From Solirubrobacterales bacterium (GTDB taxonomy: Bacteria; Actinomycetota; Thermoleophilia; Solirubrobacterales; 70-9): DNA of 64,000 nucleotides. Location of the stretch: positions 1,696 through 65,695 of the forward strand of contig DASSYI010000007.1 in the NCBI GenBank assembly GCA_035703365.1. The letters are read 5' to 3'. Within the stretch, counting starts at the first letter, position 1, and each line of letters starts with the position of its first letter. Under the pieces are notes generated by a model, which worked only from the letters and a program-made list of their open reading frames with translations, searched no databases and was not told the origin of the DNA. The translations under genes and the position numbers were made by a program. Positions 6,072 to 24,452 of this stretch are shown in pieces.

Positions 6072-7039
6072 GCCGGGGACAGCTCCCCGCCGCCGTCCTC
6101 GCTCTCCTCCTTTTCGAGGTGGTGGCCGGTCTTCTCGACGAAGACGTCGTCGAGGGTCGGGCGGACCAGCTCCAGCGACTCGACCGCGATCCCGGCCTCG
6201 TCGAGCGCCCGGACGACGCGGGGGATGTCGGCGGCGCCGTTCTCGACCTCGACCAGGACCCGCTTGCCGTCCTTCGGCGGCAGCAGCTTGCCGAGCCCGC
6301 CGCAGACCCGCTCGGCCTCCCCCACCGCGCCCTCGCCGACCGTCAGCTCGACGTGGGGGTTTCCGACCTCTTCCTTGAGCGAGTCCGGGGTTCCCCTGGC
6401 GACGATCCGGCCGCGGTCGATGATCCCGACCTCGTCGGCCAGCTGGTCGGCCTCCTCGAGGTACTGGGTGGTGAGGAAGACGGTGGTGCCGTCCTCGTTC
6501 AGCGCCCGCACCTCCTCCCAGATCGTTTTGCGGCTGACCGGGTCGAGGCCGGTGGTCGGCTCGTCGAGGAAGAGGACGCTCGGTTCGTGGACCAGGGCCG
6601 CGGCCAGGTCGAGACGGCGCTTCATCCCGCCCGAGTAGGTCCCGACCCGGCGGTCGGCGGCGGCGGTCAGGTCGACCCGTTCCAGCAGCGCATCGGCGCG
6701 CTCGCGCCCGGCGGTGGGCGGCAGCCCCTGCAGCGTCGCCTGCAGCCGGATCAACTCGCGGCCGGTCATCAGCGGGTCCAGGGCCGCTTCCTGCAGGGCG
6801 ACGCCGATCGAGGCGCGGACCGCTCGGGCCTCGGCGACGACGTCGTGGCCGGCGACGCTGGCCCGCCCGCCGGTCGGCAGCAGCAGCGTGGTCAGCATCC
6901 GCACCGTGGTCGTCTTGCCGGCGCCGTTGGGGCCAAGGAAGCCGTAGATCTCGCCCTCGGCGACCTCCAGGTCGATTCCCTGTACCGCGAGCACGTCGCC
7001 AAAAGCGCGCTCGAGCCCCGCGACCGCGATCGCCGGCAC
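6068..7039 (-). CDS. ABC transporter ATP-binding protein (DrrA-like exporter ATPase)
   Basis: Walker A GPNGAGKTT, signature YSGGMKRRL and Walker B VLFLDEPTTGLD are present. The track ORF (to 7240) runs into the amidase, so I trimmed the start to GTG at 7039, 1 nt after the amidase stop. Confidence 0.85.
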   Translation of the reverse strand: MPAIAVAGLERAFGDVLAVQGIDLEVAEGEIYGFLGPNGAGKTTTVRMLTTLLLPTGGRASVAGHDVVAEARAVRASIGVALQEAALDPLMTGRELIRLQATLQGLPPTAGRERADALLERVDLTAAADRRVGTYSGGMKRRLDLAAALVHEPSVLFLDEPTTGLDPVSRKTIWEEVRALNEDGTTVFLTTQYLEEADQLADEVGIIDRGRIVARGTPDSLKEEVGNPHVELTVGEGAVGEAERVCGGLGKLLPPKDGKRVLVEVENGAADIPRVVRALDEAGIAVESLELVRPTLDDVFVEKTGHHLEKEESEDGGGELSPA

Positions 7040-7040
7040 G

Positions 7041-8411
7041 CTAGGCCTCCAGCGGCTCGGCGCCGAGGGCGGGCGGCGTCGCCTCGACCCAGCGGCGCCC
7101 GTTGGCCCGCTCGAGCGCCTCGGCGGCGTCGAGCAGCAGCTCGTCGCGCCCCCAGGCGGCTTGCAGCTGCAGGGCCACCGGCAGCCCCTCCGAGGAGCCG
7201 ACCGGGACGCTGATCGCCGGGATGCCGGTGAGGTTGGCAAGGGCGCCGCCGCGGACGTTGGCTTCGTCGGCGGTGACGGTGCCGCTCGGCAGCTCGACCA
7301 TCGGCGCCTCCAACGGCGGCGCTACTGCCGGGACGGTCGGGCAAGCGAGCACGTCGACCTCCTCGAAGAGGCGGGCGACCGTCTGCCGTGCCATCGTCCG
7401 CACCAGGCCGGCCTTAATCGTTGCGATCGCCGGCACCAGCACCCGGTACTTGAGCAGGCCGCGGCCGAGCGGGCTCAGCTCCGGGTCGAGTTCGTTGAGC
7501 TTTTTGGGGGTGACGCCGCCGAGGCTCTCGCTGTTGGCGATCAGGACGGTCGCCAGCGTCGCCGCCGCGAGCTCCGGCAGCTCGACCTCCCGCAACTCGC
7601 TGCCGCTCTCGCGGCGCAGGTCCTCGATCGCGGCCTCGCAGGCTTCGCGCACCGCCGGCGCGACGTCATCGCTCAACTCACCGCGAATCACGCCGATCCG
7701 CAGCCCCCGCGGCTCGCCCGCCGCCAGCTCTTCGCCGAAGAGGACCGAGTCGAGCGCGCGGCAGTCGGCGGCGTCGGCGCAGAGGGCGCCGGAGACGATC
7801 GTGGTCGAGATCTCGGCCATGTGGTGGCCCGCCATCGCCGAGCGCCCGAAGGTCGGCTTCAGGCCGGTGAGGCCGCAGTAGGCGGCGGGGTAGCGGATCG
7901 AGCCGACCCCGTCGGCGCCGACCGCGCCGGCGACGAGCCGGGCGGCGACCGAGGCCGCGGGGCCGCTGGAGGATCCACCGGGGCAGCGCTCGGGATTCCA
8001 CGGGTTGTGGGCCGGCCCGTAGACCGAGATGTTGCCGGTGCTGCTGGCGCCGAGCTCATGCATGTTGCCGACGCCGACGATCACCGCGCCGGCGTCGCAC
8101 AGGGCGCGGTAGGGGCCTGACTCGCCCGGCGCCGCCGGCGCCAGCATCTCCGCGGCGCCGAACCGCTGCGCCCGCCAGGGCAGCGGCCACTCGTCCTTGA
8201 TCACGATCGGAACGCCGTACAGCGGCCCGCGGGGCGCGTCGGCGAGCATCTCCCGCGAGCGCTCGGGGAAGGTCTCGACGACGGCGTTGAGGGCCGGGTT
8301 GCGCTCCTCGATCCGCGCCAGGGTCGCCTCCAGCAGCTCGGCGGGGTCGAGCTCGCCGGCGGCGATCGCCGCCGCCTGCTGCCGCAGCGAGAGGTCGAGG
8401 CCGGCGCTCAT
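7041..8411 (-). CDS. Amidase-signature family amidase (GatA-like)
   Basis: Contains GGSSSGPAASVA...GSIRYPAAYCGLTGLKPTFGR and VPIVIKDEW. The start was trimmed to ATG at 8411 (MSAGLDLSLRQQ...), which forms an ATGA overlap with the upstream 67-aa ORF. Confidence 0.85.
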   Translation of the reverse strand: MSAGLDLSLRQQAAAIAAGELDPAELLEATLARIEERNPALNAVVETFPERSREMLADAPRGPLYGVPIVIKDEWPLPWRAQRFGAAEMLAPAAPGESGPYRALCDAGAVIVGVGNMHELGASSTGNISVYGPAHNPWNPERCPGGSSSGPAASVAARLVAGAVGADGVGSIRYPAAYCGLTGLKPTFGRSAMAGHHMAEISTTIVSGALCADAADCRALDSVLFGEELAAGEPRGLRIGVIRGELSDDVAPAVREACEAAIEDLRRESGSELREVELPELAAATLATVLIANSESLGGVTPKKLNELDPELSPLGRGLLKYRVLVPAIATIKAGLVRTMARQTVARLFEEVDVLACPTVPAVAPPLEAPMVELPSGTVTADEANVRGGALANLTGIPAISVPVGSSEGLPVALQLQAAWGRDELLLDAAEALERANGRRWVEATPPALGAEPLEA

Positions 8412-8611
8412 CGGCTCGGCGGCGCCTGCGAGAGGTCCGGGTCGCGCTCCAGCGGGACCTCGCCGGTGTCGAGGTCGAGCAGCTCGAGGACCGGCGGCCA
8501 GAGCGTCTGGTGGGCGGCGCGGATCACCATCAGCTCGATCTCGTCGGCCTCGATCCCGTAGGCGGCGAGGGCCGCCGGGATGAAGTCGTCCGTGTGCTCC
8601 GAGGCCTCCAT
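8408..8611 (-). CDS. Small acidic protein, possible GatC/AtzG-like partner of the amidase
   Basis: 67-aa ORF whose TGA overlaps the amidase ATG (ATGA). It is acidic and probably helical, with host-like codon usage. The functional call is inference from size and position. Confidence 0.5.
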   Translation of the reverse strand: MEASEHTDDFIPAALAAYGIEADEIELMVIRAAHQTLWPPVLELLDLDTGEVPLERDPDLSQAPPSR

Positions 8612-11672: not shown

Positions 11673-12479
11673 ATGCCCGCCGCCCCAATGTACGGCCGCC
11701 TGCCCATAGTGAAGATGCTGCTGGTGACGATCGCCCTGACGGTGGTCATCTCGGCGGTGATGGTCCCGATCAACTGGAACGGTCAGGGGGCCTCCACGGC
11801 TGCGCCGAAGATCGACCACCTGCTGAACGTGATGATCGTCCTCTCGGCGTTCGTCTTCTCGCTGGTGATGGTGATGCTCTTCTACGCGCTGTGGAAATTC
11901 AAAGCGAAGCCCGGCGACGAGTCCGACGGCGAGCCGATTCACGGCAACACCCGCCTGGAGATCGCCTGGACCCTGATCCCGACCGTCATCGTCCTCTTCG
12001 CCGGCGGCTACAGCTGGAAGGTCCTGGACGACATCGAAGAGCCGAACTCCAAGCACCTGACGGTCTCGGTCTTCTCCCAGCAGTACGCCTGGAGCTTCGC
12101 CTACCCAGGCAAAGGCTACGCCTACAGCGAAGGCGAGCTGCACGTGCCGGTCGATCGCCAGATTCAGTTCAAAATGCACGCGATGGACGTGATCCACTCC
12201 TTCTGGGTCCCCGAGTGGCGGATCAAGAAAGACAACGTCCCCGGCATCACCACCACCGCGATCGTCACCCCCGACAAGGAAGGGACCTACCAGCTGGTCT
12301 GCACCGAGCTCTGCGGCTTCGGCCACGCGACGATGCGCGCCAAAGTCGTCGTCGAGTCGCCGGCCAAGTTCAACGAATGGGTCGAAGGCCTCAAACAGGA
12401 CCTCCCCGAACCGTTCATGGACGTTCTCAAAGAAGAGAGCGTCTCGAACCCGCCGGCGCTGGACGCCGGAGGGGCATAA
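11673..12479 (+). CDS. ctaC: Cytochrome c oxidase subunit II (CuA-containing)
   Basis: Two N-terminal TM helices and a complete CuA site: DVIHSFWVPEW ... CTELCGFGHATM. Confidence 0.92.
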   Translation: MPAAPMYGRLPIVKMLLVTIALTVVISAVMVPINWNGQGASTAAPKIDHLLNVMIVLSAFVFSLVMVMLFYALWKFKAKPGDESDGEPIHGNTRLEIAWTLIPTVIVLFAGGYSWKVLDDIEEPNSKHLTVSVFSQQYAWSFAYPGKGYAYSEGELHVPVDRQIQFKMHAMDVIHSFWVPEWRIKKDNVPGITTTAIVTPDKEGTYQLVCTELCGFGHATMRAKVVVESPAKFNEWVEGLKQDLPEPFMDVLKEESVSNPPALDAGGA

Positions 12480-12491
12480 TGGAGCCAGCTG

Positions 12492-14399
12492 ATGGTTGAC
12501 GCGATCAAGAGACCCGGCTGGTGGCGTGGCCTGATCGGCGCCATCGCCTTCGGCGCCTTCGGCTTCGGCCTCGTCATCGCCCTGCGGGCGATCTCCGACC
12601 TGCCGCTCTACCAGACCGAACAGACCGGCTACCCGCACGTGATCGTGCCCGCGATCACCGCCCCGCTCGGCTTCCTGCTGGGCTTCGGCTGCTTCGACTA
12701 CTGGCTGCGCTGGGCCGCGGGGCTGCCGACGATTCCGGACGACCACTCCCAGCACGGCGCCAAGAGCTGGAGGGACTACTTCAAATTCAACACCGACCAC
12801 AAGGTGATTGGTGTCCAGTACGTCGTCACGACGTTCTTCTTCTTCTTCCTCGGCGGCCTGATGGCGATGCTGATCCGGGCCGAGCTCGCCCAGCCGGGCA
12901 CCCAGATCGTCGAAGCCTCGACCTACAACAGCCTCTTCTCGACCCATGCGGTGCTGATGATCTTCGTCTTCGTGATTCCGGTCTTTGCCGGGCTCGCGAA
13001 CTACGTCCTGCCGCTGATGATCGGCGCCCCGGACATGGCCTTCCCGCGCCTCAACGCGCTCAGCTTCTGGATGCTGCCGATCGCCGGGGTCCTCTTCATC
13101 GGCAGCTTCCTCGCCCCCGGCGGCGCCTTCGACGCCGGCTGGACGGGGTACGCGCCGCTTTCGACCGGAGCCCCCCTCGGGCAGTCGTTCTTCAACCTCG
13201 GCGTCCAGTTCGCAGGCGCCTCCTCGATCGCGACCGCGCTCAACTTCCTGGTCACGATCATCACCATGCGTGCGCCGGGGATGACCTTCTGGCGGATGCC
13301 GCTGCTGGTCTGGGCGAACCTCTCGACCTCGCTGCTGGTCGTCGCCGCCACCCCGTTCATCGCCGGCGTCCAGTTCATGGTCCTCTTCGACCGCGCCCTG
13401 CACACGAACTTCTTCGACTTCGCGGCCGGCGGCGACGTGATCAGCTACCAGCACATCTTCTGGTTCTACTCCCACCCGGCGGTCTACATCATGATGCTGC
13501 CCGGGTTCGGGATCATCTCCGAGGTCATCTCGACCCATGCCCGCAAGCCGATCTTCGGCTACCGGTTGATGGCCCTGGCGCTGATCGGGATCGTCGTCCT
13601 CAGCTACTCGGTCTGGGCGCACCACATGTTCGTCGCCGGGATGTTCTCTTGGCTGCGGGTGCCGATGATGATCACCACCCTGCTGATCGCGGTGCCGACC
13701 GGGATCAAGATCTTCTCCTGGCTGGGAACGCTCTACTTCGGCAAGATCCACACCTATTCGACGTCGATGCTGTTCGCGCTCGCTTTCATCGTCACCTTCA
13801 CGATCGGCGGGATCTCGGGCGTGATGCTCGGCATGGTGCCGATCGACATCCACGTCTCCGACACCTACTTCATCGTCGCCCACATCCACTTCGTCCTCTT
13901 TGGCGGCTCGGTGTTCACGATCTTCGCCGGCGTCTACCACTGGTTCCCGAAGATGACCGGGCGGATGTACGACGAGAAACTCGGCCGCGTCCACTTCTGG
14001 GGCACCCTGGTGGGCACCTGGGGCACCTTCATCCCGATGCACTGGGTGGGGATGGACGGGATGCCGCGCCGGGTCGCCGACTACGCCGAGCAGTTCGGCA
14101 ACTGGAACCTCTTGATCAGCGCCTTCGCCTTCATGCTCGGCGCGATGCAGCTCGTCTTCCTCTACAACATGGTCGTCAGCTGGCGCTTCGGCCCGAAGGC
14201 CGAGGCCAACCCCTGGCGGGCCAACTCGATCGAGTGGCAGGTCTCTTCGCCGCCGCCGATCTTCAACTTCGACGAGATCCCGCGCGTCGTCGGCGGCCCC
14301 TATGAGTTCGGGATCCCCGGCGCCAAACACGCGATCATGGCCGGCGAAGGGGCAGAGGTGCCCGCCGGTGAGAAAAGCGCGGTGGGCACCGGCTCATGA
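12492..14399 (+). CDS. ctaD: Cytochrome c oxidase subunit I (A-type, YS-motif A2-like)
   Basis: All six ligand histidines are present (STHAVLMIF, WFYSHPAVY, WAHHMF, AHIHFVLFGG), along with TMRAPGM and WFPKMTGR. The 635-aa protein has an N-terminal extension. Confidence 0.95.
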   Translation: MVDAIKRPGWWRGLIGAIAFGAFGFGLVIALRAISDLPLYQTEQTGYPHVIVPAITAPLGFLLGFGCFDYWLRWAAGLPTIPDDHSQHGAKSWRDYFKFNTDHKVIGVQYVVTTFFFFFLGGLMAMLIRAELAQPGTQIVEASTYNSLFSTHAVLMIFVFVIPVFAGLANYVLPLMIGAPDMAFPRLNALSFWMLPIAGVLFIGSFLAPGGAFDAGWTGYAPLSTGAPLGQSFFNLGVQFAGASSIATALNFLVTIITMRAPGMTFWRMPLLVWANLSTSLLVVAATPFIAGVQFMVLFDRALHTNFFDFAAGGDVISYQHIFWFYSHPAVYIMMLPGFGIISEVISTHARKPIFGYRLMALALIGIVVLSYSVWAHHMFVAGMFSWLRVPMMITTLLIAVPTGIKIFSWLGTLYFGKIHTYSTSMLFALAFIVTFTIGGISGVMLGMVPIDIHVSDTYFIVAHIHFVLFGGSVFTIFAGVYHWFPKMTGRMYDEKLGRVHFWGTLVGTWGTFIPMHWVGMDGMPRRVADYAEQFGNWNLLISAFAFMLGAMQLVFLYNMVVSWRFGPKAEANPWRANSIEWQVSSPPPIFNFDEIPRVVGGPYEFGIPGAKHAIMAGEGAEVPAGEKSAVGTGS

Positions 14400-15280
14400 G
14401 CGCCGTGCAGGCTGATGAGCGTAAACCGCTGCTGGTCTTCCTCAACGAGGTTGCCGGCGGCCGCAAGCTGCTGCAGGCGGTGCGTGAGCGTCAGGAGCAG
14501 GTCTCCGGCGTCGTCGTCGCGGCGCCGCAGAACCAGCCCTCGGTCGGGCAGCTGATCGACGCCAGCGAGGTGCGCGAGGCCGCTCGGGCCCGGGTCGAGG
14601 TGACGATGGCCGTGCTGGGCGAGTTCGGGATCGGCTCGGTCGGCGAGGTGATGGACCCCGAGCCTTCGCTGGCTCTCGACGACGCCGTCAGGGCGCACCG
14701 CCCGGGCGAGGTGCTCCTCTCCTGCCTGGCCGACACCCGCTTCGGCTTCTTGCGCCGCGACCTGGTCGAGTGGGCGCGCGAGCGGGTCGAACCCGAGGTG
14801 AAGTTCACCCACATCCCGGTGCGGATCGAGGACGACGCGATCCGCTGGGACCTCAACCACACCCTTGTCGTGGCGACCAAGACCGTCGCCGCCCCGGATC
14901 TGGTGGCGCGGATGAAGGACAGGGCGAGCATTCGACCGCACCGCTTCACGATCATCTGCCCGCGGGCCGAGGACGTGAGCGAGGGCCAGGTCGTCCGCGA
15001 CCTCGCCTCGACCCTGGCGGAGCTCTACCGCTCCGAGATCGACGCCACCGGCCAGCCGATGAGCCCGGATCCCTTCCTTGCGGTCAAGAACGCGATCGAG
15101 CACTATCGGATCGACGACATCCTGATCTCCACCTTTGCCGGCGAGCGTTCGCAGTGGCTCGAGGAGGATCTGATCGGCCGGGTGCGGGAGATAACCGAGA
15201 AGTCCGTCGAGCACATCGAGGTCGGCCGGCCCGCGGCAGCAGTCGCCGCGGCCGTCGCCGAGGGGGAGGCAAGCAGCTGA
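14396..15280 (+). CDS. Soluble tandem-repeat (USP-like/adenine-nucleotide-alpha-hydrolase-like) protein embedded in the cta operon
   Basis: 294-aa ORF with no TM segments and two homologous halves (GEVMDPEPSLALDDAVRAHRPGEVLLS vs GQPMSPDPFLAVKNAIEHYRIDDILIS). It has ATGA overlaps with both ctaD and ctaE. Confidence 0.7.
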   Translation: MSAVQADERKPLLVFLNEVAGGRKLLQAVRERQEQVSGVVVAAPQNQPSVGQLIDASEVREAARARVEVTMAVLGEFGIGSVGEVMDPEPSLALDDAVRAHRPGEVLLSCLADTRFGFLRRDLVEWARERVEPEVKFTHIPVRIEDDAIRWDLNHTLVVATKTVAAPDLVARMKDRASIRPHRFTIICPRAEDVSEGQVVRDLASTLAELYRSEIDATGQPMSPDPFLAVKNAIEHYRIDDILISTFAGERSQWLEEDLIGRVREITEKSVEHIEVGRPAAAVAAAVAEGEASS

Positions 15281-15906
15281 TGGAGAGCGCGTCGGTGGCC
15301 GTCGGCCACGCCCACGCCGATCATCACCACGGCCCGCCCGAGGCCAACCAGAGCTCGCGGATCGACCGCCAGACGCTGGGGATCCTGCTCTTCATCGTCT
15401 CCGAGGTAATGCTCTTCGGAGCGTTCTTCGCGTCCTACTTCTTCCTCCGGGTCGTCGTCGACCCGCCGAGCTGGCCGCCGGAACCGTATACGCTGCCGGT
15501 CGGGGTCGCGGGGATGAACACGGCGATCCTCGTCTCCTCCAGCTTCACGATCCACTACGCGCTGGAGTCGATCCGGCGCGGCAACCGCCAGGGCCTGAAA
15601 CTCGGCCTGGTAGCCACCTGGCTGCTCGGCGCCACCTTCCTCTTCATCCAGATCAACGAGTACGCGCACATCGGCTTCAGCGCCCGCGACCTCTCGTTCG
15701 GCTCGATCTTCTACAGCCTCACCGGGTTGCACGGAGCCCACGTCTTCGTCGGCCTGATGCTGCTCACGTTCGCGACGATCCGCGCCTTCCGCGGCCATTT
15801 CGGCCCCAAGGCGGAGGACCACCTAGGCGTCGAGGTGCCAGGGATCTACTGGCACTTCGTCGACATCATGTGGATCATCGTCTACGTGACCGTGTACATC
15901 CTCTAG
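15280..15906 (+). CDS. ctaE: Cytochrome c oxidase subunit III
   Basis: Trimmed to ATG at 15280 (MESASVAVGHAHADHHHG...). The 208-aa polytopic protein ends in HFVDIMWIIVYVTVYIL, typical of subunit III. Confidence 0.9.
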   Translation: MESASVAVGHAHADHHHGPPEANQSSRIDRQTLGILLFIVSEVMLFGAFFASYFFLRVVVDPPSWPPEPYTLPVGVAGMNTAILVSSSFTIHYALESIRRGNRQGLKLGLVATWLLGATFLFIQINEYAHIGFSARDLSFGSIFYSLTGLHGAHVFVGLMLLTFATIRAFRGHFGPKAEDHLGVEVPGIYWHFVDIMWIIVYVTVYIL

Positions 15907-17178: not shown

Positions 17179-18153
17179 TCAGGCGTGCCCGGCGGCGGCC
17201 GCGGCGGGGCGCTCGGCTTCGCGACGCGCGGACGAGGGTTCGCCGCGGGGTTGAAGCCGCCCCGCCGCGGCAACCGCCCACAGCATCGCCAGCCAGTTGC
17301 CGGTGGCGATCCCGACGTGGACCCAGACGATTCCCGCCGGCAGTTCCAGCCACCACTGCACGCCGCCTACGAGGCCCTGGAGGGCGAGGAGGCCGATTAC
17401 CAGGGTCAGGGGCCTAAGGGCGCGCCGGTCGGCGCCAGGGCGGCGCAGGAGGAACCAGACGGCGATCGCCGCCAGGCCGTAGATCGCGGCGATCGCCGCG
17501 TGGCGCTGGACCACCCACTCGAGCGTCCCCGTGCCCTCGAAGTCGAAGCGGTGGACCAGCTGCCCTTCGTGCGCTCCGGCGTGGGGCCCCGAGGCCGTGG
17601 CGACCGTTCCGGCCAGGATCGTCAGTTGCCCCAGCGGGATTAGAGCCCGAACCGCCCAGACGCTCAGGCGGTCGCGCGAGCGGCGCCGCTCCCAGGGTTC
17701 GTAGCGCGAGCACCAGGCGAGCGCGAAGGCTGCGTCGAGCAGCATCATCGAGAGGATGAAGTGGGACATCACCAGGCCCGGCGCCAAGTGGTACTTGACG
17801 ACCAGGGCGCCGAGGATCGCCTGGCCGATCACCCCGAGCGGCAGCAGGGCGCCGAACAGCGCCAGGTGCCAGCGGTAGGGGCGGCGGAAGAAGGCGAGGA
17901 CGCTGGCGGCGATCACGGCGATGCCGACGAACCCGGTCAGCAGCCGGTTCCCGTACTCGATCACCGCGTGGGATTCGATCGGGGGCGTGGTGCCGCCGTA
18001 GCATTTGGGCCAGTCCGGGCAGCCGAGGCCGGAGCCGGTGAGGCGCACCCCAGCGCCGGTGAGGACGATCAGGGAAAGCGCCGCGAGGGCGACCATCGTC
18101 ACCTGGGCATAGCGCTGCGGAGCGATCTCGAAGCGGCTCAAGCGTTCGCGCAT
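17179..18153 (-). CDS. ctaA: Haem A synthase (COX15/CtaA)
   Basis: 324-aa polytopic ORF with the N-terminal GLGCPDWPKCYG motif and conserved His in TM helices. Confidence 0.88.
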   Translation of the reverse strand: MRERLSRFEIAPQRYAQVTMVALAALSLIVLTGAGVRLTGSGLGCPDWPKCYGGTTPPIESHAVIEYGNRLLTGFVGIAVIAASVLAFFRRPYRWHLALFGALLPLGVIGQAILGALVVKYHLAPGLVMSHFILSMMLLDAAFALAWCSRYEPWERRRSRDRLSVWAVRALIPLGQLTILAGTVATASGPHAGAHEGQLVHRFDFEGTGTLEWVVQRHAAIAAIYGLAAIAVWFLLRRPGADRRALRPLTLVIGLLALQGLVGGVQWWLELPAGIVWVHVGIATGNWLAMLWAVAAAGRLQPRGEPSSARREAERPAAAAAGHA

Positions 18154-18194: not shown

Positions 18195-18893
18195 TCAGCC
18201 CTTGGCGCTGCCGCCGGCGGGCGAGTTTTCGATCAAGTACTGGACCAGGTCTTCGAGTTCTTTGGGGCTGAGGAGTTCGCCGAAGTTCGGCGGCATCACG
18301 TTCGGCTGGTAGCCCTTGACGATCTCTGCGTTGGGTTCGACGATCATCTCTTCGATCGAGGCCGCGTCGTCGTCGGGGGCCAGCGATTCGTCCAGGTTGG
18401 GGCCGGTGACGCCGCCGGATTTGGCGGCGGCGAAGGTGTGGCAGTTGCCGCAGCCGTTGCTGGCGTAGACCTGCGCGCCGGGGCCGCCGGGTACCTTGGG
18501 CGGCGCCGCGCCGGGGACGCCGGCCCATTCGCCGACGTAGGCGGCGACGTCGTCGAGGTCCTGGCCGGTGACGATGTCGGCGGGCATCGAGACAGCGGTG
18601 TTGCCGTTGCTGGGTCGCGGGTACTCGACCTGTGCTTTGACGACCCCCTCGATCGTGTCCGAATCGTTGCCTTCTTCACGCGCCGCGGCGAAGGCGTGGT
18701 CGAGGTTCGGGCCGGTCTGGCCGGTGGCTCCGGCCTGCGCCAGCGCGTGGCAGGTGCCGCACTTGACCCGGAAGAGTTCGCGCCCCCGCTGCGGGTCGGC
18801 GTCGGTGGTGCCGCAGCCCGAGGCGACCGCCATGAGGGCGGCAAGGGCCAGGAGGGCGAGCAGCGGGGGGATGAGTTTCGATACGCGGGCCAT
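18195..18893 (-). CDS. Dihaem c-type cytochrome lipoprotein
   Basis: Trimmed to ATG at 18893. It has a lipobox (LMAVASGCG) and two CxxCH motifs (CGTCH, CGNCH), each followed by TGPNLD. Confidence 0.88.
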   Translation of the reverse strand: MARVSKLIPPLLALLALAALMAVASGCGTTDADPQRGRELFRVKCGTCHALAQAGATGQTGPNLDHAFAAAREEGNDSDTIEGVVKAQVEYPRPSNGNTAVSMPADIVTGQDLDDVAAYVGEWAGVPGAAPPKVPGGPGAQVYASNGCGNCHTFAAAKSGGVTGPNLDESLAPDDDAASIEEMIVEPNAEIVKGYQPNVMPPNFGELLSPKELEDLVQYLIENSPAGGSAKG

Positions 18894-19985: not shown

Positions 19986-20089
19986 GGAGGGTCGGGTACC
20001 CCTCTGCCAAAGACCGTCGCGCAGCTGGGCGAATTTGAGGGCGCCGCCGTGATTTCTTGAGCCTTTGTCAGAGGGGTACCCGACCCTCC
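19986..20089. repeat. Perfect 21-bp inverted repeat with a 62-nt spacer
   Basis: GGAGGGTCGGGTACCCCTCTG (19986-20006) has its exact reverse complement CAGAGGGGTACCCGACCCTCC at 20069-20089. It lies between ctaB and the mini-ORFs. Confidence 0.9.
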
Positions 20090-20125: not shown

Positions 20126-21040
20126 CTAGACGTTGGCTGCGATGGCCATCGAGAGGAAGAGCAGCGCTAGGTAGGCGAGGGAGAAGAGGTAGGTCCGCAG
20201 GGCCCAGCGGCGGTCTTTGGTGCGGAGGAGGCGGGCTGCGTAGTAGATGAAGCCGGCTCCGAGGAGGACCGAGGGGATCAGGTAGGCGACTCCGAGGCCG
20301 CCGGCGCAGAAGGGGAGCTGGGTTACGGCGTAGAGGAGGACCGTGTAGAGGAGGATCTGGCGGCGGGTCTCGTCCTCGCCGCGGACGACCGGCAGCATCG
20401 GGATCCCGGCCTTGGCGTACTCGTCCTTCATCAGCAGCGAGAGAGCCCAGAAGTGGGGCGGGGTCCAGAAGAAGATGATCGCGAACATGTAGAAGGCCAT
20501 GCCGCTGAGCTCGCCCGTGACGGCGGCCCAGGCGACCAGTGGCGGCACGGCGCCGGCCGCGCCGCCGATGACGATGTTCTGCGGCGTGCGGCGCTTCAGC
20601 CAGAGGGTGTAGACCCCGACGTAGCCGACGAAGCCGCTGAGCGAGAGCGTTGCCGCCAGGGGGTTGACGGTCAGCGAGAGCAACAGGAACGAGGAGGCGG
20701 CCAGAAGGAGGCCGAAGATCGTTGCCGCCTGCGGGGAGATGCGGCCGGCGGCGACCGGGCGGGTGGCGGTGCGCGCCATCGTCCGGTCGATGTCGCGGTC
20801 GACGGCGTGGTTGATCGCGCCGGCGCCGCCGGCGGAGAGGGCGCCGCCGAGGCAGGTGAGGAGGATCAGGCCGAGCGAGGGGTCGCCCGCCACGTACATC
20901 GTCGTCACCGTCGTGAATAGCAGCAGCGACTGCACCTTCGGCTTGGTCAGCGTCAGGTAGTCGCGGACGACGGTGGGGAGGACCGAGCGGGTGGCCGCCG
21001 TCGGATTGGGCGCGGTCTGCGCGCCGGCACCGGATTGCAT
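20126..21040 (-). CDS. ctaB: Protohaem IX farnesyltransferase (haem O synthase)
   Basis: 304-aa UbiA-family ORF with NHAVDRDIDRTMARTATRP. Confidence 0.9.
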   Translation of the reverse strand: MQSGAGAQTAPNPTAATRSVLPTVVRDYLTLTKPKVQSLLLFTTVTTMYVAGDPSLGLILLTCLGGALSAGGAGAINHAVDRDIDRTMARTATRPVAAGRISPQAATIFGLLLAASSFLLLSLTVNPLAATLSLSGFVGYVGVYTLWLKRRTPQNIVIGGAAGAVPPLVAWAAVTGELSGMAFYMFAIIFFWTPPHFWALSLLMKDEYAKAGIPMLPVVRGEDETRRQILLYTVLLYAVTQLPFCAGGLGVAYLIPSVLLGAGFIYYAARLLRTKDRRWALRTYLFSLAYLALLFLSMAIAANV

Positions 21041-21045
21041 GGCGC

Positions 21046-22731
21046 TCAGGCTACCGGCTGCGATTCGCGCGACGCCGCCCGCTCGGAGCGACGGGTGCGA
21101 TGGCCGATCGCCTCACGGATGTCGCGCAGCGGGCGGGCGCTGCGGACGTCGGGGAGGACGTCGAAGTTGTGCGGCTCCGGCGGCGAGAGGGTGAACCACT
21201 CCAGCGTGTCGCCGCCCCACGGGTCATGGCCGGCCTCGGGGCCGTTCTCGCGGCTGGCGATGGCGTTGACGATCGTCAGCAGGATCCCGATGGAGAGGAC
21301 GAAGACGCCGATCGAGGCGATCACGTTGTAGGCGGTGACGCCGGTGCCGGCGAAGTACTTGTAGGCGTCGATCACCTGACCCTGCTCGGTGCCGGCGAAG
21401 AACAGCGGCACGAAACCGAGCAGCAGGCCGGTCATGATCGTCCAGAAGGAGATTCGGGCGAGGGTCTCGCCCATCGTCCGTCCGGTCATCTTCGGGAACC
21501 AGAAGTGGAGCGCGGCGAAGCCGCCGAAGACCGAGCCGCCGATCAGGGTGAAGTGGGTGGCCGCAGTCGAGTCGACCGTGTTCTTCAGGTGCCAGGCGGA
21601 GGCGACCAGCGAGTGGCAGAGCTCGGAGGCGAGGCCGACCGTGATCGCGAAGATCGCCCCGGTTGCGAAGAGCAGCGGCGCCCGCATGTGCAGGGTGCCG
21701 CCGGCCAGGGTCGCGATCAGGTTGAAGAGGACGAGCCCGAAGGGGACGATCAGCGCCAGCGACATCAGCATCGCGAAGTACATCCAGCCGATGCCGATCG
21801 GCGCGGTCAGCATGTTCTGCATCCAGGCCATGGTCCCGATCACCGCGATCGCGGCCAGCGCGGCCATCACCACGGTGCGGTTGAAGAGCGGTTTGCGCGA
21901 GAAGGCAGAGGCGATTTCGGCGATCGCGCCGAAGGCGAAGATCAGGATCAGCATGTAGGCGCCGGTGTAGAAGATCCAGCTCAGGTGCTGCCAGAGGAGC
22001 GGCGCGCCGCCGGAGCCGTCGGCGAAGAAGATCCCGTCGTAGTGGCGGTCGATCATCAGCATCGTCAGCGCCGCCAGCAGAACCGGGCCGATCACGACCA
22101 TCAGCCAGGAGCCGACCGCGGCGGCCCAGGCGAAGACCGGCACCCGGCGCCAGGCCATTCCCGGCGCCCGCATCGTTTTCAGCGTCGCGATCAGGTTGAT
22201 CGCGAGGAAGACGAAGCCGAGGGTCGCGAGCCCCGACGAGGTCACCCAGGCGTCGACGCCGTTGTTGGAGAGGAAGGCCTTCTCGCTGAGCGGCGCCAGC
22301 GGGTTGACGCCGGCCTCAGACGGGGTGAAGAGGAAGGTCGCGTAGAGGGCCACGCCGCCGGTCACCCAGAGCGCCAGCCCGGTCTGCCCGAGGCGCGGCA
22401 GCGCCGTCCCGCGGGCGCCGATCTGCAGCGGCGTCACGTAGTAGAAGAGCCCCATCGTCAGCGGCAGCGCGAAGAGGAAGATCGCGCTGGCGCCGTAGAG
22501 CGAGAGCATCCGGTTGAAGGCGACGGGGGAGAGGAAGGTGTTCTCCGGCACCAGCAGCTGGATCCGCATCAGCACCAGCTCGACGAGGGCGAGGAAGAGG
22601 AAGCCGAGGGCGCCGCAGATCAGGATCTGCCCGATCTCCTTGTGGTCGGCGCTGGTCGCGAGCTGCGCCCAGCGCGGGCGCTTGGGGCTGTAGCCGCCGG
22701 CGACGAGCTCGGGGCGCGGGCTGGGGCTCAT
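21046..22731 (-). CDS. Haem-copper oxidase subunit I-like protein lacking 5 of 6 canonical His ligands
   Basis: 561-aa, 12-TM ORF with clear COX1 anchors (SADHKEIG, TMRAPGM, WFPKMTGR). The ligand columns read Y, T, QN and A. See findings. Confidence 0.9.
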   Translation of the reverse strand: MSPSPRPELVAGGYSPKRPRWAQLATSADHKEIGQILICGALGFLFLALVELVLMRIQLLVPENTFLSPVAFNRMLSLYGASAIFLFALPLTMGLFYYVTPLQIGARGTALPRLGQTGLALWVTGGVALYATFLFTPSEAGVNPLAPLSEKAFLSNNGVDAWVTSSGLATLGFVFLAINLIATLKTMRAPGMAWRRVPVFAWAAAVGSWLMVVIGPVLLAALTMLMIDRHYDGIFFADGSGGAPLLWQHLSWIFYTGAYMLILIFAFGAIAEIASAFSRKPLFNRTVVMAALAAIAVIGTMAWMQNMLTAPIGIGWMYFAMLMSLALIVPFGLVLFNLIATLAGGTLHMRAPLLFATGAIFAITVGLASELCHSLVASAWHLKNTVDSTAATHFTLIGGSVFGGFAALHFWFPKMTGRTMGETLARISFWTIMTGLLLGFVPLFFAGTEQGQVIDAYKYFAGTGVTAYNVIASIGVFVLSIGILLTIVNAIASRENGPEAGHDPWGGDTLEWFTLSPPEPHNFDVLPDVRSARPLRDIREAIGHRTRRSERAASRESQPVA

Positions 22732-23426
22732 GGGGTTTCTCCGTTTTCGATCTGGCCGACGACCTTTTCCTGTGCGGCCTCGATCTCTTCAGCCTGCGTT
22801 TCGACGAACTCTTCGTATTCCTCTGGCGAGACGACCTCGACTTCGGTCCGCATCGCCGCGTAGGCCTGGCCGGAAAGGGTGGCGGAGTCGCCCAGGTAGG
22901 CGCCTTCCTCGTCGGCGCTGAAGAGCACCTTGTTGGTCTTGCCCGGCACCGCGTCGGCCTTACGCGCCAGTTCTTCCACATTCCAAGTGTGGACGACGTC
23001 GGTCGACTGCAGCTCGAGCTCCACAGCGGTGTCGACCGGGACCACCAGCTTGTAGTAGGAGAAGGCGCCGTTCGGGTAGTCGTAGCGCCACAGCCACTGC
23101 TGGCCGGTCGCTTCGATCTTCAGCGGTTCCGATTTGTCCGAGGCAAGGCCCGCCTCGCCGGTCGTCGGCTTTTCCCGGGCGTTGTCGGTGAAGACAATCC
23201 CGAGGATGAAGAGCAGCGCCGCAAAGACGGTGAGGACGCCCCCGACCCGGAACTGCAGGCGCCGGCCGCCGAGCAACTGGCGCGGCTCGGCCCCCCGCTC
23301 GCCGCGGTAGCGGCGGACGACATAGAGGAGCGCGCCGACGATCGCGACGATCAGGATCGCCGCGGCGAAGAAGCCGATCCAAAACAGCGTGTCGATCTGG
23401 TCCGTGCCAGGGGAGTGGGACGCCAA
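22728..23426 (-). CDS. Oxidase subunit II-like protein without CuA ligands
   Basis: 232-aa ORF with 2 TM plus a cupredoxin-like domain (GQQWLWRYDY, DVVHTWNV). The CuA CxExCGxxHxxM stretch reads SATLSGQAYAAM. It has an ATGA overlap with the subunit I-like gene. Confidence 0.85.
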   Translation of the reverse strand: MASHSPGTDQIDTLFWIGFFAAAILIVAIVGALLYVVRRYRGERGAEPRQLLGGRRLQFRVGGVLTVFAALLFILGIVFTDNAREKPTTGEAGLASDKSEPLKIEATGQQWLWRYDYPNGAFSYYKLVVPVDTAVELELQSTDVVHTWNVEELARKADAVPGKTNKVLFSADEEGAYLGDSATLSGQAYAAMRTEVEVVSPEEYEEFVETQAEEIEAAQEKVVGQIENGETP

Positions 23427-23507
23427 AGCGCGGCCATTCTATTCACGCTGGGCGGCGCGACGCCCTCCCGGCCGGCTTCTGGCCCCGGACCTATACTCGC
23501 CGCCGCT

Positions 23508-24452
23508 ATGCGGAAGCGCTCCCGGCCATCGAATGCGCTCCATCTGGCGGTGCGGGCCGGCGCCCTCGGCGCGGTCGGCGCGGCCGTGGCGGTCCCCCTG
23601 CTCCGGCGCCGGTTGCGAATCCCGACCGCCGCCACCGTGACCGCCGTCGCGGCCGGCCCGTTGGCGCTGGCCGTGTTGAGTCCGCGCTCGAAGCGGCGCG
23701 ACGTCGTCCTCTTCGCGCTGCAGATGTGGGCCTTCACCGTCGCCCACGAGCTCCCTTATGACGACCCCGAGCGGCTGAAATCACGGCTTCGCACCCTCTA
23801 TCCGATCCACAGCGACCGGATCATCGGCGCAGGTCAGCTGCCCAACGTCCGCCTGCAGCGCGGTTTGGCCCGTCTGCCGCAGGTCGGGGCGCTGAACAAA
23901 TTCCTCGCCTGGACCCACTGGCTCTGGTTCATCGTGCCCTACGCTTCGCTGAGCTGGATCCTCGTCCGGCACAACGAGCGCTTCCCGCGCTCGGCGCGCC
24001 AGATGGCCGCCGTCTTCGACCTTGGCTGCGTCCTCTACTTCGCGGTCCCGACGGCGCCGCCGTGGTGGTCCTCCGAGCAGGGCCTGACCGGAGAAGAGGT
24101 GCGGCGGATCATGGTCGAGGTCGGCGAACCGACTTGGGGCCGGGCCTGGGAGCGGATGTACGACGCCCTCGGCGGCAACCCGTGGGCGGCGATGCCCTCG
24201 CTGCACTTCGCCACCTCGCTGCAGGCGGCGCTTTCGCTCTCGGAAGCGGGGAAGGTGGAGGGCGCGCTCGGCTGGGGGTACGCGGGCACGCTCGGCTTCG
24301 CCCTCGTCTACCTCGGTGAGCACTACGTCACCGACCTGATCGCCGGCGCGGTCCTGGTGGCGGCCGTGCGCAAGGGCGAGCCGCTCGCCGAACCCCTTAT
24401 ACGCAGGGTAAATGGAGGGCTACAGAGACTGGAGAGAATCGCGAGCGGGTAA
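23508..24452 (+). CDS. PAP2-superfamily membrane phosphatase/phosphotransferase
   Basis: Trimmed to ATG at 23508. This polytopic protein carries the PAP2 motifs MPSLHFATS and GEHYVTD. Confidence 0.7.
   Translation: MRKRSRPSNALHLAVRAGALGAVGAAVAVPLLRRRLRIPTAATVTAVAAGPLALAVLSPRSKRRDVVLFALQMWAFTVAHELPYDDPERLKSRLRTLYPIHSDRIIGAGQLPNVRLQRGLARLPQVGALNKFLAWTHWLWFIVPYASLSWILVRHNERFPRSARQMAAVFDLGCVLYFAVPTAPPWWSSEQGLTGEEVRRIMVEVGEPTWGRAWERMYDALGGNPWAAMPSLHFATSLQAALSLSEAGKVEGALGWGYAGTLGFALVYLGEHYVTDLIAGAVLVAAVRKGEPLAEPLIRRVNGGLQRLERIASG

Follow-up and report, generated by a model that had tools for sequence, protein, structure and literature searches.

We analysed a 64,000-nucleotide stretch of contig DASSYI010000007.1 (assembly GCA_035703365.1) from a Solirubrobacterales bacterium, hereafter the window, in which two adjacent genes encode homologues of subunits I and II of haem-copper oxidases (COX1-like and COX2-like) directly upstream of ctaB, the gene for haem O synthase. 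These genes very probably encode a maintained, non-redox pseudo-enzyme pair that derives from a working oxidase. The pair lacks essentially every residue that serves metal binding, haem binding or proton conduction in canonical oxidases, and we predict from its sequence that both haem/copper content and oxidase activity are absent. The three genes at the centre of this analysis are:

20126..21040, minus strand, ctaB, haem O synthase, 304 aa (NF003349, PF01040)
21046..22731, minus strand, COX1-like (subunit I-like) gene, 561 aa, 12 predicted transmembrane (TM) helices (PF00115)
22728..23426, minus strand, COX2-like (subunit II-like) gene, 232 aa, TTG start, two TM helices and a cupredoxin domain (PF00116)

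An earlier reading of the window, made from the sequence alone, had described 21046-22731 as a subunit I paralogue that has lost five of its six canonical histidine ligands while remaining an intact, operon-embedded gene. The open reading frame (ORF) is real and uninterrupted over 561 aa, and its strand is here corrected to minus. Read on that strand, it runs from an ATG at 22731-22729 to a TGA at 21048-21046, the ATG overlapping the TGA of the COX2-like gene (22730-22728) in an ATGA, and a gap of 5 nt separates its own TGA from the ATG of ctaB. Both the coupling to the subunit II-like gene and the close spacing to ctaB thus stand as the sequence-only reading had them, and ctaB is presumably co-transcribed and translationally coupled with the COX1-like gene. 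The GC content at third codon positions (GC3) of the COX1-like gene is 0.97, matching the neighbouring genes in a window of 69% GC.

Cofactor ligands and proton channels are lost from both subunits

The ligand columns of COX1-like were read by HMMER alignment to CtaD of M. smegmatis (6adq_F), by BLAST alignment to the window's own CtaD, and by aligning it with MAFFT to 63 canonical relatives from GTDB genomes, each of which carries histidine at the six positions (HHHHHH). In agreement with the original by-eye comparison, whose anchor motifs are all present in the protein, the three alignments showed that five of the six histidine ligands have been replaced. The helix II histidine column is occupied by Y79, the helix VI CuB column by T256, the two histidine columns of helix VII by Q305-N306 and the first histidine column of helix X, the haem a3 ligand, by A391. 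The sole remaining ligand is H393, the second helix X histidine and the second histidine of haem a. The cross-linked tyrosine is likewise replaced, by M260 as had been proposed. A match to the PF00115 profile, which had been suggested as a check, was obtained over residues 33-478 with E=1.8e-80; it establishes homology to the superfamily.

The replacements also include residues outside the metal sites. The D-channel Asp and Asn have become G108 and G115, the K-channel Thr and Lys have become F331 and V334, and an Mg-site Asp is N384. The Arg-Arg pair that contacts the haem propionates reads V454/D455, with D455 present in 100% of the ligand-less family described below. Taking the columns whose conservation among canonical sequences is 90% or more, we counted 44 near-invariant positions lost from the ligand-less family, those named above among them, and 60 kept, the latter being mostly Gly, Pro, Trp and loop residues. 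A compensating Tyr or Glu, such as the FeB Glu of nitric oxide (NO) reductases, was looked for, and no such pattern is conserved across the ligand-less family. Identity as an NO reductase, including a novel type, was rejected, since those families keep their histidine ligands and COX1-like does not.

In the COX2-like protein, the residues of the CuA site are changed from Cys to Ser, Glu to Thr, Cys to Ser and His to Tyr. Aligned with subunit II of the Thermus thermophilus caa3 oxidase (2yev_B), CAELCGASHARM is replaced by SATLSGQAYAAM, and the canonical motif H...CxExCxxxHxxM instead reads H...SATLSGQAYAAM. An S/A..S..Y..M pattern is common to the subunit II proteins of all 19 more distant family loci, and syntenic canonical neighbours retain CxExCxxxHxxM.

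COX1-like is compatible with the oxidase subunit I fold

COX1-like falls well below NCBI's curated cut-offs for two subunit I profiles, scoring 370.5 bits against a cut-off of 670.75 for TIGR02891 (the CtaD/CoxA equivalog) and 335 against 880 for NF050116 (actinobacterial aa3 subunit I). HMMER nevertheless aligned it to M. smegmatis CtaD over residues 16-541 (E=7e-83, about 33% identity), and BLASTP to the window's own CtaD with 33% identity over 510 residues. COX2-like matches PF00116 (E=2.8e-18, 66 bits) and lies just under the cut-off of TIGR02866 (142.4 against 147.7), while CtaB, at 359 bits, clears the NF003349 cut-off of 246. An AlphaFold2 model of COX1-like, built from a 66-sequence alignment in place of an earlier 8-sequence family alignment that had given a predicted local distance difference test score (pLDDT) of 55, contains twelve long helices and has a pLDDT of 90.4 and a predicted TM-score (pTM) of 0.92. 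The top Foldseek matches to this model in the PDB were the actinobacterial CtaD chains 9gy6_F and 6adq_F, with TM-scores of 0.90-0.92, followed by subunit I of bo3, caa3 and aa3 oxidases. Judged by these TM-scores, the protein is compatible with the 12-TM COX1 fold and appears to have kept it.

The ligand-less family is conserved and under purifying selection

Of 8000 candidates scored in a search of 5.8 billion proteins, 6093 were relatives at E<=1e-20, for the most part canonical oxidases. The best 120 relatives are 84-97% identical to COX1-like and nearly all 561 aa long, and those that carry an organism name are metagenome-assembled genomes (MAGs) of Solirubrobacterales. Whether the substitution pattern is conserved within a clade had been put forward as a check, and the answer is clear: Y79, T256, M260, Q305, N306, H393 and D455 are invariant in 121/121 sequences at 85-100% identity (the 120 close homologues plus the window), even with 300 of the 561 columns varying among these sequences, which come from independent metagenomes. 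An assembly or sequencing artefact was rejected on the basis of the 121 concordant independent sequences.

A search of 50%-identity representatives, together with a scan of GTDB species genomes, recovered 19 further full-length family loci at 46-86% identity, 17 in GTDB species genomes and two on metagenome contigs. All belong to Solirubrobacterales, Thermoleophilia or Conexibacteraceae MAGs and all 19 lack the ligands, and every relative at 43% identity or below is canonical. Across the ligand-less family Q305, N306 and D455 are found at 95-100%, and G257, L145, A320 and L367 are further replacement residues that are fixed family-wide. The family, comprising 20 sequences with that of the window and reaching down to 46% identity, is monophyletic in a neighbour-joining tree.

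Pairwise Nei-Gojobori estimates of the ratio of non-synonymous to synonymous substitution rates (dN/dS), which are rough in absolute terms, were 0.13 (against locus L086) and 0.21 (against L084) for COX1-like and 0.10 (L086) and 0.21 (L084) for COX2-like. In the L084 comparison the working CtaD and CtaB both gave 0.09 and neighbouring membrane proteins 0.18-0.27. Estimates of this kind are unreliable below about 85% identity, and the L086 and L084 comparisons alone were used; values above 1 for CtaC and CtaD reflected comparisons between paralogues, the true orthologue being absent from the locus, and were discarded as meaningless. When amino-acid replacements are scaled to those of the A2-type CtaD in each genome pair, the ligand-less protein shows 2.5-4.2 times as many, compared with 1.05-1.4 times for its canonical positional orthologue in sister lineages. 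At the sequence level this indicates that constraint on COX1-like is relaxed yet real, catalytic constraint having apparently gone and substantial constraint being left.

These data bear on the possibility that the pair is a functionless relic, its protein being inert and its ORFs kept open solely by the polar effect that a nonsense or frameshift mutation would have on the essential ctaB downstream. The faster amino-acid replacement, 2.5-4.2 times that of working CtaD, would fit such a relic, as would the location of the pair upstream of ctaB and translationally coupled to it. A copy in locus L041 (about 7000-8605) is frameshifted in the helix II-VI region and could be counted on the same side; it comes from a long-read MAG and may owe its frameshift to a sequencing indel or be a true pseudogene of the family. 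However, the frame is open in the window, in the 120 close homologues and in the 19 distant loci, dN/dS values of 0.13-0.21 are far from the value of about 1 that is characteristic of a pseudogene, the ligand-less pattern is invariant in 121 homologues, and 60 canonical positions along with many family-specific ones are conserved down to 46% identity. The sequence-only reading had taken the gene for a maintained derivative and not a decaying pseudogene, a view now backed by 19 intact loci, conserved synteny, the dN/dS values and the fixed replacement residues.

The pair occupies the chromosomal slot of a working oxidase

Midpoint rooting of the neighbour-joining tree places the ligand-less family as sister to all other sequences, a long-branch effect, and because such a tree cannot name the sister group, we argue the origin of the family from synteny. 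Throughout the family, one flank carries genes for thioredoxin-reductase-like, LPG-synthase-like and PAP2_3 proteins on the opposite strand. These are followed by COX2-like, COX1-like, CtaB, a small ORF and, again on the opposite strand, a CBS gene, and then by cytochrome c, CtaA, a 256-aa membrane protein and an A2-type ctaC-ctaD-orf294-ctaE operon. Adjacency to ctaB is kept in every family locus, in some with ctaA inserted between: in the deep branches L015, L017 and L018, COX1-like and ctaB directly flank a CtaA-like gene. The position of ctaA is conserved in L004-L013 and L084.

The CtaA-like gene found between COX1 or COX1-like and ctaB, which is present in L015, L017, L018, L021 and L023, is a second haem A synthase-like gene of a Cys-pair type (for example, 8672-9730 in L023 and about 8800-9773 in L018). 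It is a weak match to NF045570 (E=1.4e-8) and shares 29-38% identity with the CtaA of the window. A CtaA of the window type was not found within the 15.6-kb stretch of L018 that we examined. In the lineage of the window, ctaA is placed after the cytochrome c gene instead.

In L021-L030, from Thermoleophilaceae, Solirubrobacteraceae and Paraconexibacter, the equivalent slot holds a canonical A1-type ctaC-ctaD-(ctaA)-ctaB cluster, in which the CtaC motif CxExCxxxHxxM is intact and CtaD has six histidines together with GHPEVY, GARD and TGxK. By position, the window pair is therefore orthologous to a working A1-type oxidase of two subunits. Genes of the haem A pathway would, from this gene order, already have been part of the ancestral oxidase operon, arranged as ctaC-ctaD-(ctaA)-ctaB. 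It is highly probable that the loss of cofactor and proton-channel residues occurred in one branch of the Solirubrobacterales (Thermoleophilia, Actinomycetota), with the folds and purifying selection being kept.

Partial losses were seen in two representatives, P0127 (L089 4303-6027), with HHLRYG in the ligand columns, and P0149 (L091 2861-4588), with SHTTHQ. Both share the Thermoleophilia synteny of the window as far as their contigs reach, that of P0149 ending soon past COX1-like, which suggests stepwise or independent decay of one ancestral oxidase in sister lineages.

We also compared the CtaB of the window (20126-21040) with those of L010, L012, L018, L019 and L022-L030. CtaB identity was 57-61% in ligand-less lineages whose A2-type CtaD is 79-85% identical, and 67-85% in canonical-pair lineages at a CtaD identity of 71-88%. 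This faster divergence of CtaB may stem from its co-evolution with the degenerate subunits or from general relaxation.

Ligand-deficient COX1 homologues recur beside ctaB

Approximately 35 of the 150 nearest 50%-identity representatives are COX1-like proteins that lack one to six of the histidine ligands (within P0127-P0264; loci L087-L092). Many of them keep both ligands of the low-spin haem while those of CuB and haem a3 are gone, as in the pattern H-T/Y-x-E-A/M-H of P0143, P0175 and P0193. All six of the ligand-deficient clusters that were looked up adjoin a UbiA/CtaB gene, in three gene orders:

P0154 and P0174: COX2-COX1like-UbiA
P0143 and P0193: UbiA-COX1like-COX3, then one or two genes, then canonical COX2-COX1-COX3
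P0127 and P0149: the Thermoleophilia order

By comparison, ctaB lay within 500 bp of the oxidase gene in about 2 of about 50 canonical CtaD loci from outside the Thermoleophilia in the same scan. In P0143 and P0193 the degenerate COX1-like gene sits downstream of ctaB, beyond the reach of any protection by polarity, and we now regard an inert relic as a very improbable explanation for the window pair.

These degenerate oxidase subunits appear to be a largely undescribed population. P0015, P0036, P0271 and others are annotated as 'cbb3-type cytochrome c oxidase subunit I' by NCBI and as 'cytochrome c oxidase subunit 1' by JGI. Since automated labels call ligand-less genes oxidase subunit I, metagenomic inventories would over-count terminal oxidases in these soil actinobacteria.

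A possible partner of the haem O and haem A synthases

Regarding function, we tentatively propose, with a confidence that stops a little short of even, that the role of the pair is tied to CtaB and CtaA, for which it would serve as a non-catalytic membrane partner. COX1-like and COX2-like would form a permanently cofactor-free 'apo-oxidase' module in the membrane, and this module would provide a docking and stabilising, possibly also regulating, platform for the synthases of haem O (CtaB) and haem A (CtaA), which in turn would supply the A2-type oxidase that remains, whose genes lie about 5 kb away. CtaA is known to associate with CtaB in a complex and may also bind apo-subunit I (PMC9145763). 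On this view, a contact that apo-subunit I makes with the haem A machinery transiently, during assembly, may have been frozen into a dedicated non-catalytic partner. We favour a scaffold or platform because of the link to ctaB, which comprises the coupling of the genes, their invariant adjacency, the insertion of ctaA, the recurrence in other lineages and a precedent in the literature. The recurrence beside ctaB strengthens the case for a partner of CtaB, a role that we infer from gene context.

Several points weigh against this reading. Adjacency to ctaB is ancestral, being shared by the canonical relatives, and so speaks of history and not of physical contact, and in Paracoccus no stable association between CtaA and subunit I has been demonstrated (PMC5249081). 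The additional degenerate clusters come from one similarity-ranked list, are phylogenetically non-independent and represent about three types of arrangement. The 66-sequence alignment behind the structural model included canonical oxidases, and the model addresses compatibility with the fold rather than the filling of the haem cavities. Lastly, a GC3 of about 0.97 compresses dS, which is what makes the absolute dN/dS values rough.

The pair might instead handle haem itself, with Y79 of helix II and H393 of helix X binding haem O or haem A transiently, as a chaperone or buffer for CtaB and CtaA. In the clade of the window these two residues stand exactly where the axial ligands of the low-spin haem used to be, they are invariant in the 121 close sequences and in L004-L013, and ctaB is coupled to the gene. 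Haem-transfer proteins such as HasA, IsdC and ShuT typically use Tyr/His or Tyr as ligands. The wider family, however, shows covariation of the two columns (F-F, A-L, A-I, G-G and L-W), which resembles the packing of a collapsed pocket, the propionate-binding Arg is the invariant D455 with Val as its neighbour, and all other ligands of haem a3 and CuB have been lost. Haem handling is for these reasons a rather improbable function of the pair. A 'differently liganded centre', one of the options entertained in the sequence-only reading, is disfavoured by the same two observations, namely that Y79 and H393 are not conserved family-wide and that the propionate Arg has become an invariant Asp.

A structural subunit, or a new function, unrelated to CtaB was also considered: the pair could join the A2-type oxidase and the cytochrome c encoded nearby as a non-catalytic member of a respiratory supercomplex, or could have taken on transport or sensing with the oxidase fold as its scaffold. 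The synteny of cytochrome c, ctaA and A2-type ctaCD-orf294-ctaE across the family would be consistent with this, as would the family-wide fixation of Q305, N306, D455, G257, L145, A320 and L367, and 'deranged' bc1 subunits have been proposed to be retained for structural reasons in Acetobacteraceae (PMC10715153). On the other hand, we found no specific signature of a transporter or sensor, the known proton pathways have been destroyed and not remodelled, and the ctaB adjacency of degenerate COX1-like genes in other lineages would be left unexplained. We consider a role unrelated to CtaB doubtful.

Extending the proposed partnership with CtaB beyond the window is more speculative, and we put it forward as a possibility that is more apt to fail than to hold. 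A cofactor-less subunit I, with or without a subunit II or III, might be a recurrently evolved structural partner of the haem O/haem A synthase, a 'pseudo-oxidase-CtaB module' with independent origins in Solirubrobacterales, in other Actinomycetota (the P0143/P0193 and P0154/P0174 types) and in Acetobacter. If so, CtaB and CtaA would normally need an apo-subunit-I surface for their stability or activity, and haem A synthesis would be physically organised on its client protein.

The pair bears on how haem O and haem A are synthesised, retained and passed to oxidase subunit I, a process in which, according to reviews, the insertion mechanism and its participants are still open (PMC9145763, PMC5249081). 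The COX1-like/COX2-like pair may represent a natural 'trapped client', with the architecture of subunits I and II, no predicted cofactor uptake and selection beside ctaB. If the pair binds CtaB or CtaA, it would offer a stable complex for structural study of the haem A pathway. In addition, a single chromosomal slot holds an evolutionary series of canonical, partly degenerate (P0127, P0149) and fully ligand-less forms, leading from a core respiratory enzyme to a pseudo-enzyme.

Neighbouring features of the window

The remaining features of the cluster and its surroundings are:

11673-12479, plus strand, ctaC, CuA intact, first gene of the working oxidase operon 11673..15906
12492-14399, plus strand, ctaD, A2-type with all six histidines, working oxidase operon
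14396-15280, plus strand, orf294, conserved, 294 aa, between ctaD and ctaE, no Pfam/NCBIfam match
about 15286-15906, plus strand, ctaE, last gene of the working oxidase operon
17179..18153, minus strand, ctaA, haem A synthase, downstream in the conserved cluster (PF02628, E=1.3e-24)
18195..18893, minus strand, di-haem c-type cytochrome (PF00034 and PF13442), start uncertain and set by that of the orthologous gene
23427..23549, divergent intergenic region separating the COX2-like and PAP2_3 phosphatase-family genes (gene calls of the orthologous locus L084)
about 23550-24452, plus strand, PAP2_3 phosphatase-family gene (Pfam-labelled gene calls)

The operon at 11673..15906 presumably encodes the working oxidase that consumes the haem A. 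Its A2-type CtaD reads FYSHPAVY, lacks the helix VI Glu and is extended at the N-terminus by about 95 aa. The neighbouring orf294 overlaps the ctaD stop by 4 nt and holds this position in Thermoleophilia loci whose copies share 28-96% identity, L017 having the weakest match.

The intergenic region 23427..23549 is the presumed promoter region of the COX2like-COX1like-ctaB operon. A sigma-70 consensus promoter was not found in our scan, the consensus being uninformative for an actinobacterium of 69% GC, and a terminator scan gave two matches only, both at chance level and likewise uninformative at this GC content. At 37 nt 3' of the ctaB stop, we found a 27-nt inverted repeat (19986-20012 / 20063-20089) with 96% complementarity and a 50-nt spacer, whose arm sequence is unique within the window. 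The repeat may form a large hairpin that acts as terminator or attenuator, or may represent a small element of a mobile or REP-like kind.

Comparison with known systems

The closest precedent comes from Acetobacter, in which, according to the account of Degli Esposti et al. 2023 (PMC10715153, citing Matsutani et al. 2014, BBA 1837:1810), a COX1-like protein without metal-binding residues is kept beside ctaB and has been proposed to be a structural stabiliser of CtaB. Compared by description only, the window gene agrees with that account in being an intact COX1 homologue that lacks cofactor ligands and is clustered with ctaB. In the literature as it was available to us, the retention of a ligand-less COX1 with ctaB is thus a phenomenon previously noted once, for Acetobacter. 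Our literature search found no description of the Solirubrobacterales ligand-less family, of its CuA-less subunit II partner or of its canonical positional orthologue, nor of the recurrence of a ligand-less COX1-ctaB association across lineages.

The two cases differ in several respects. Acetobacter belongs to the Alphaproteobacteria, whereas the genes described here are from Actinomycetota; their origins are presumably independent, and synteny points to an origin of the present family within the Thermoleophilia. Cytochrome c oxidase has been lost from Acetobacter, as that account has it, and haem serves a bo3/ba3 quinol oxidase, while an intact A2-type ctaCDE is encoded 5 kb away from the window pair. 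Relative to what is reported there, a CuA-less subunit II partner is also retained here, and the present data document family-wide conservation, selection of the purifying kind and a canonical orthologue at the equivalent position.

Among canonical oxidases, those of L021-L030 are the nearest relatives of COX1-like (37-43% identity), and they share both its gene order and its slot, with the thioredoxin reductase and LPG-synthase genes on one side and CBS and the A2-type oxidase operon on the other. They keep the six histidines, GHPEVY, the D- and K-channel residues, PRR and the CuA motif, whereas the window pair is without these, H393 excepted, and evolves about three times faster. The actinobacterial aa3 CtaD proteins (6adq_F, 9gy6_F; 7q21_D of C. 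glutamicum) provide the best matches in sequence (E ~1e-83, ~33%) as well as in structure, and share a C-terminal 'PxVRSxxP' tail with COX1-like. In contrast to COX1-like, they are catalytic and have a complete set of ligands and proton channels.

CyoA of the E. coli bo3 oxidase and QoxA resemble COX2-like in being cupredoxin subunits II without CuA ligands, and are weaker matches to it. In those quinol oxidases subunit I is fully catalytic, whereas here both subunits are without cofactor sites. The Cox15-Cox1 intermediates of yeast, the CtaA-CtaB complex and Surf1 offer a functional logic for the proposed partnership, with apo-subunit I as the natural client of CtaA and CtaB (PMC9145763). The contacts of apo-Cox1 are transient and end at haem insertion; COX1-like, by contrast, would be unable to take up haem in the canonical way.

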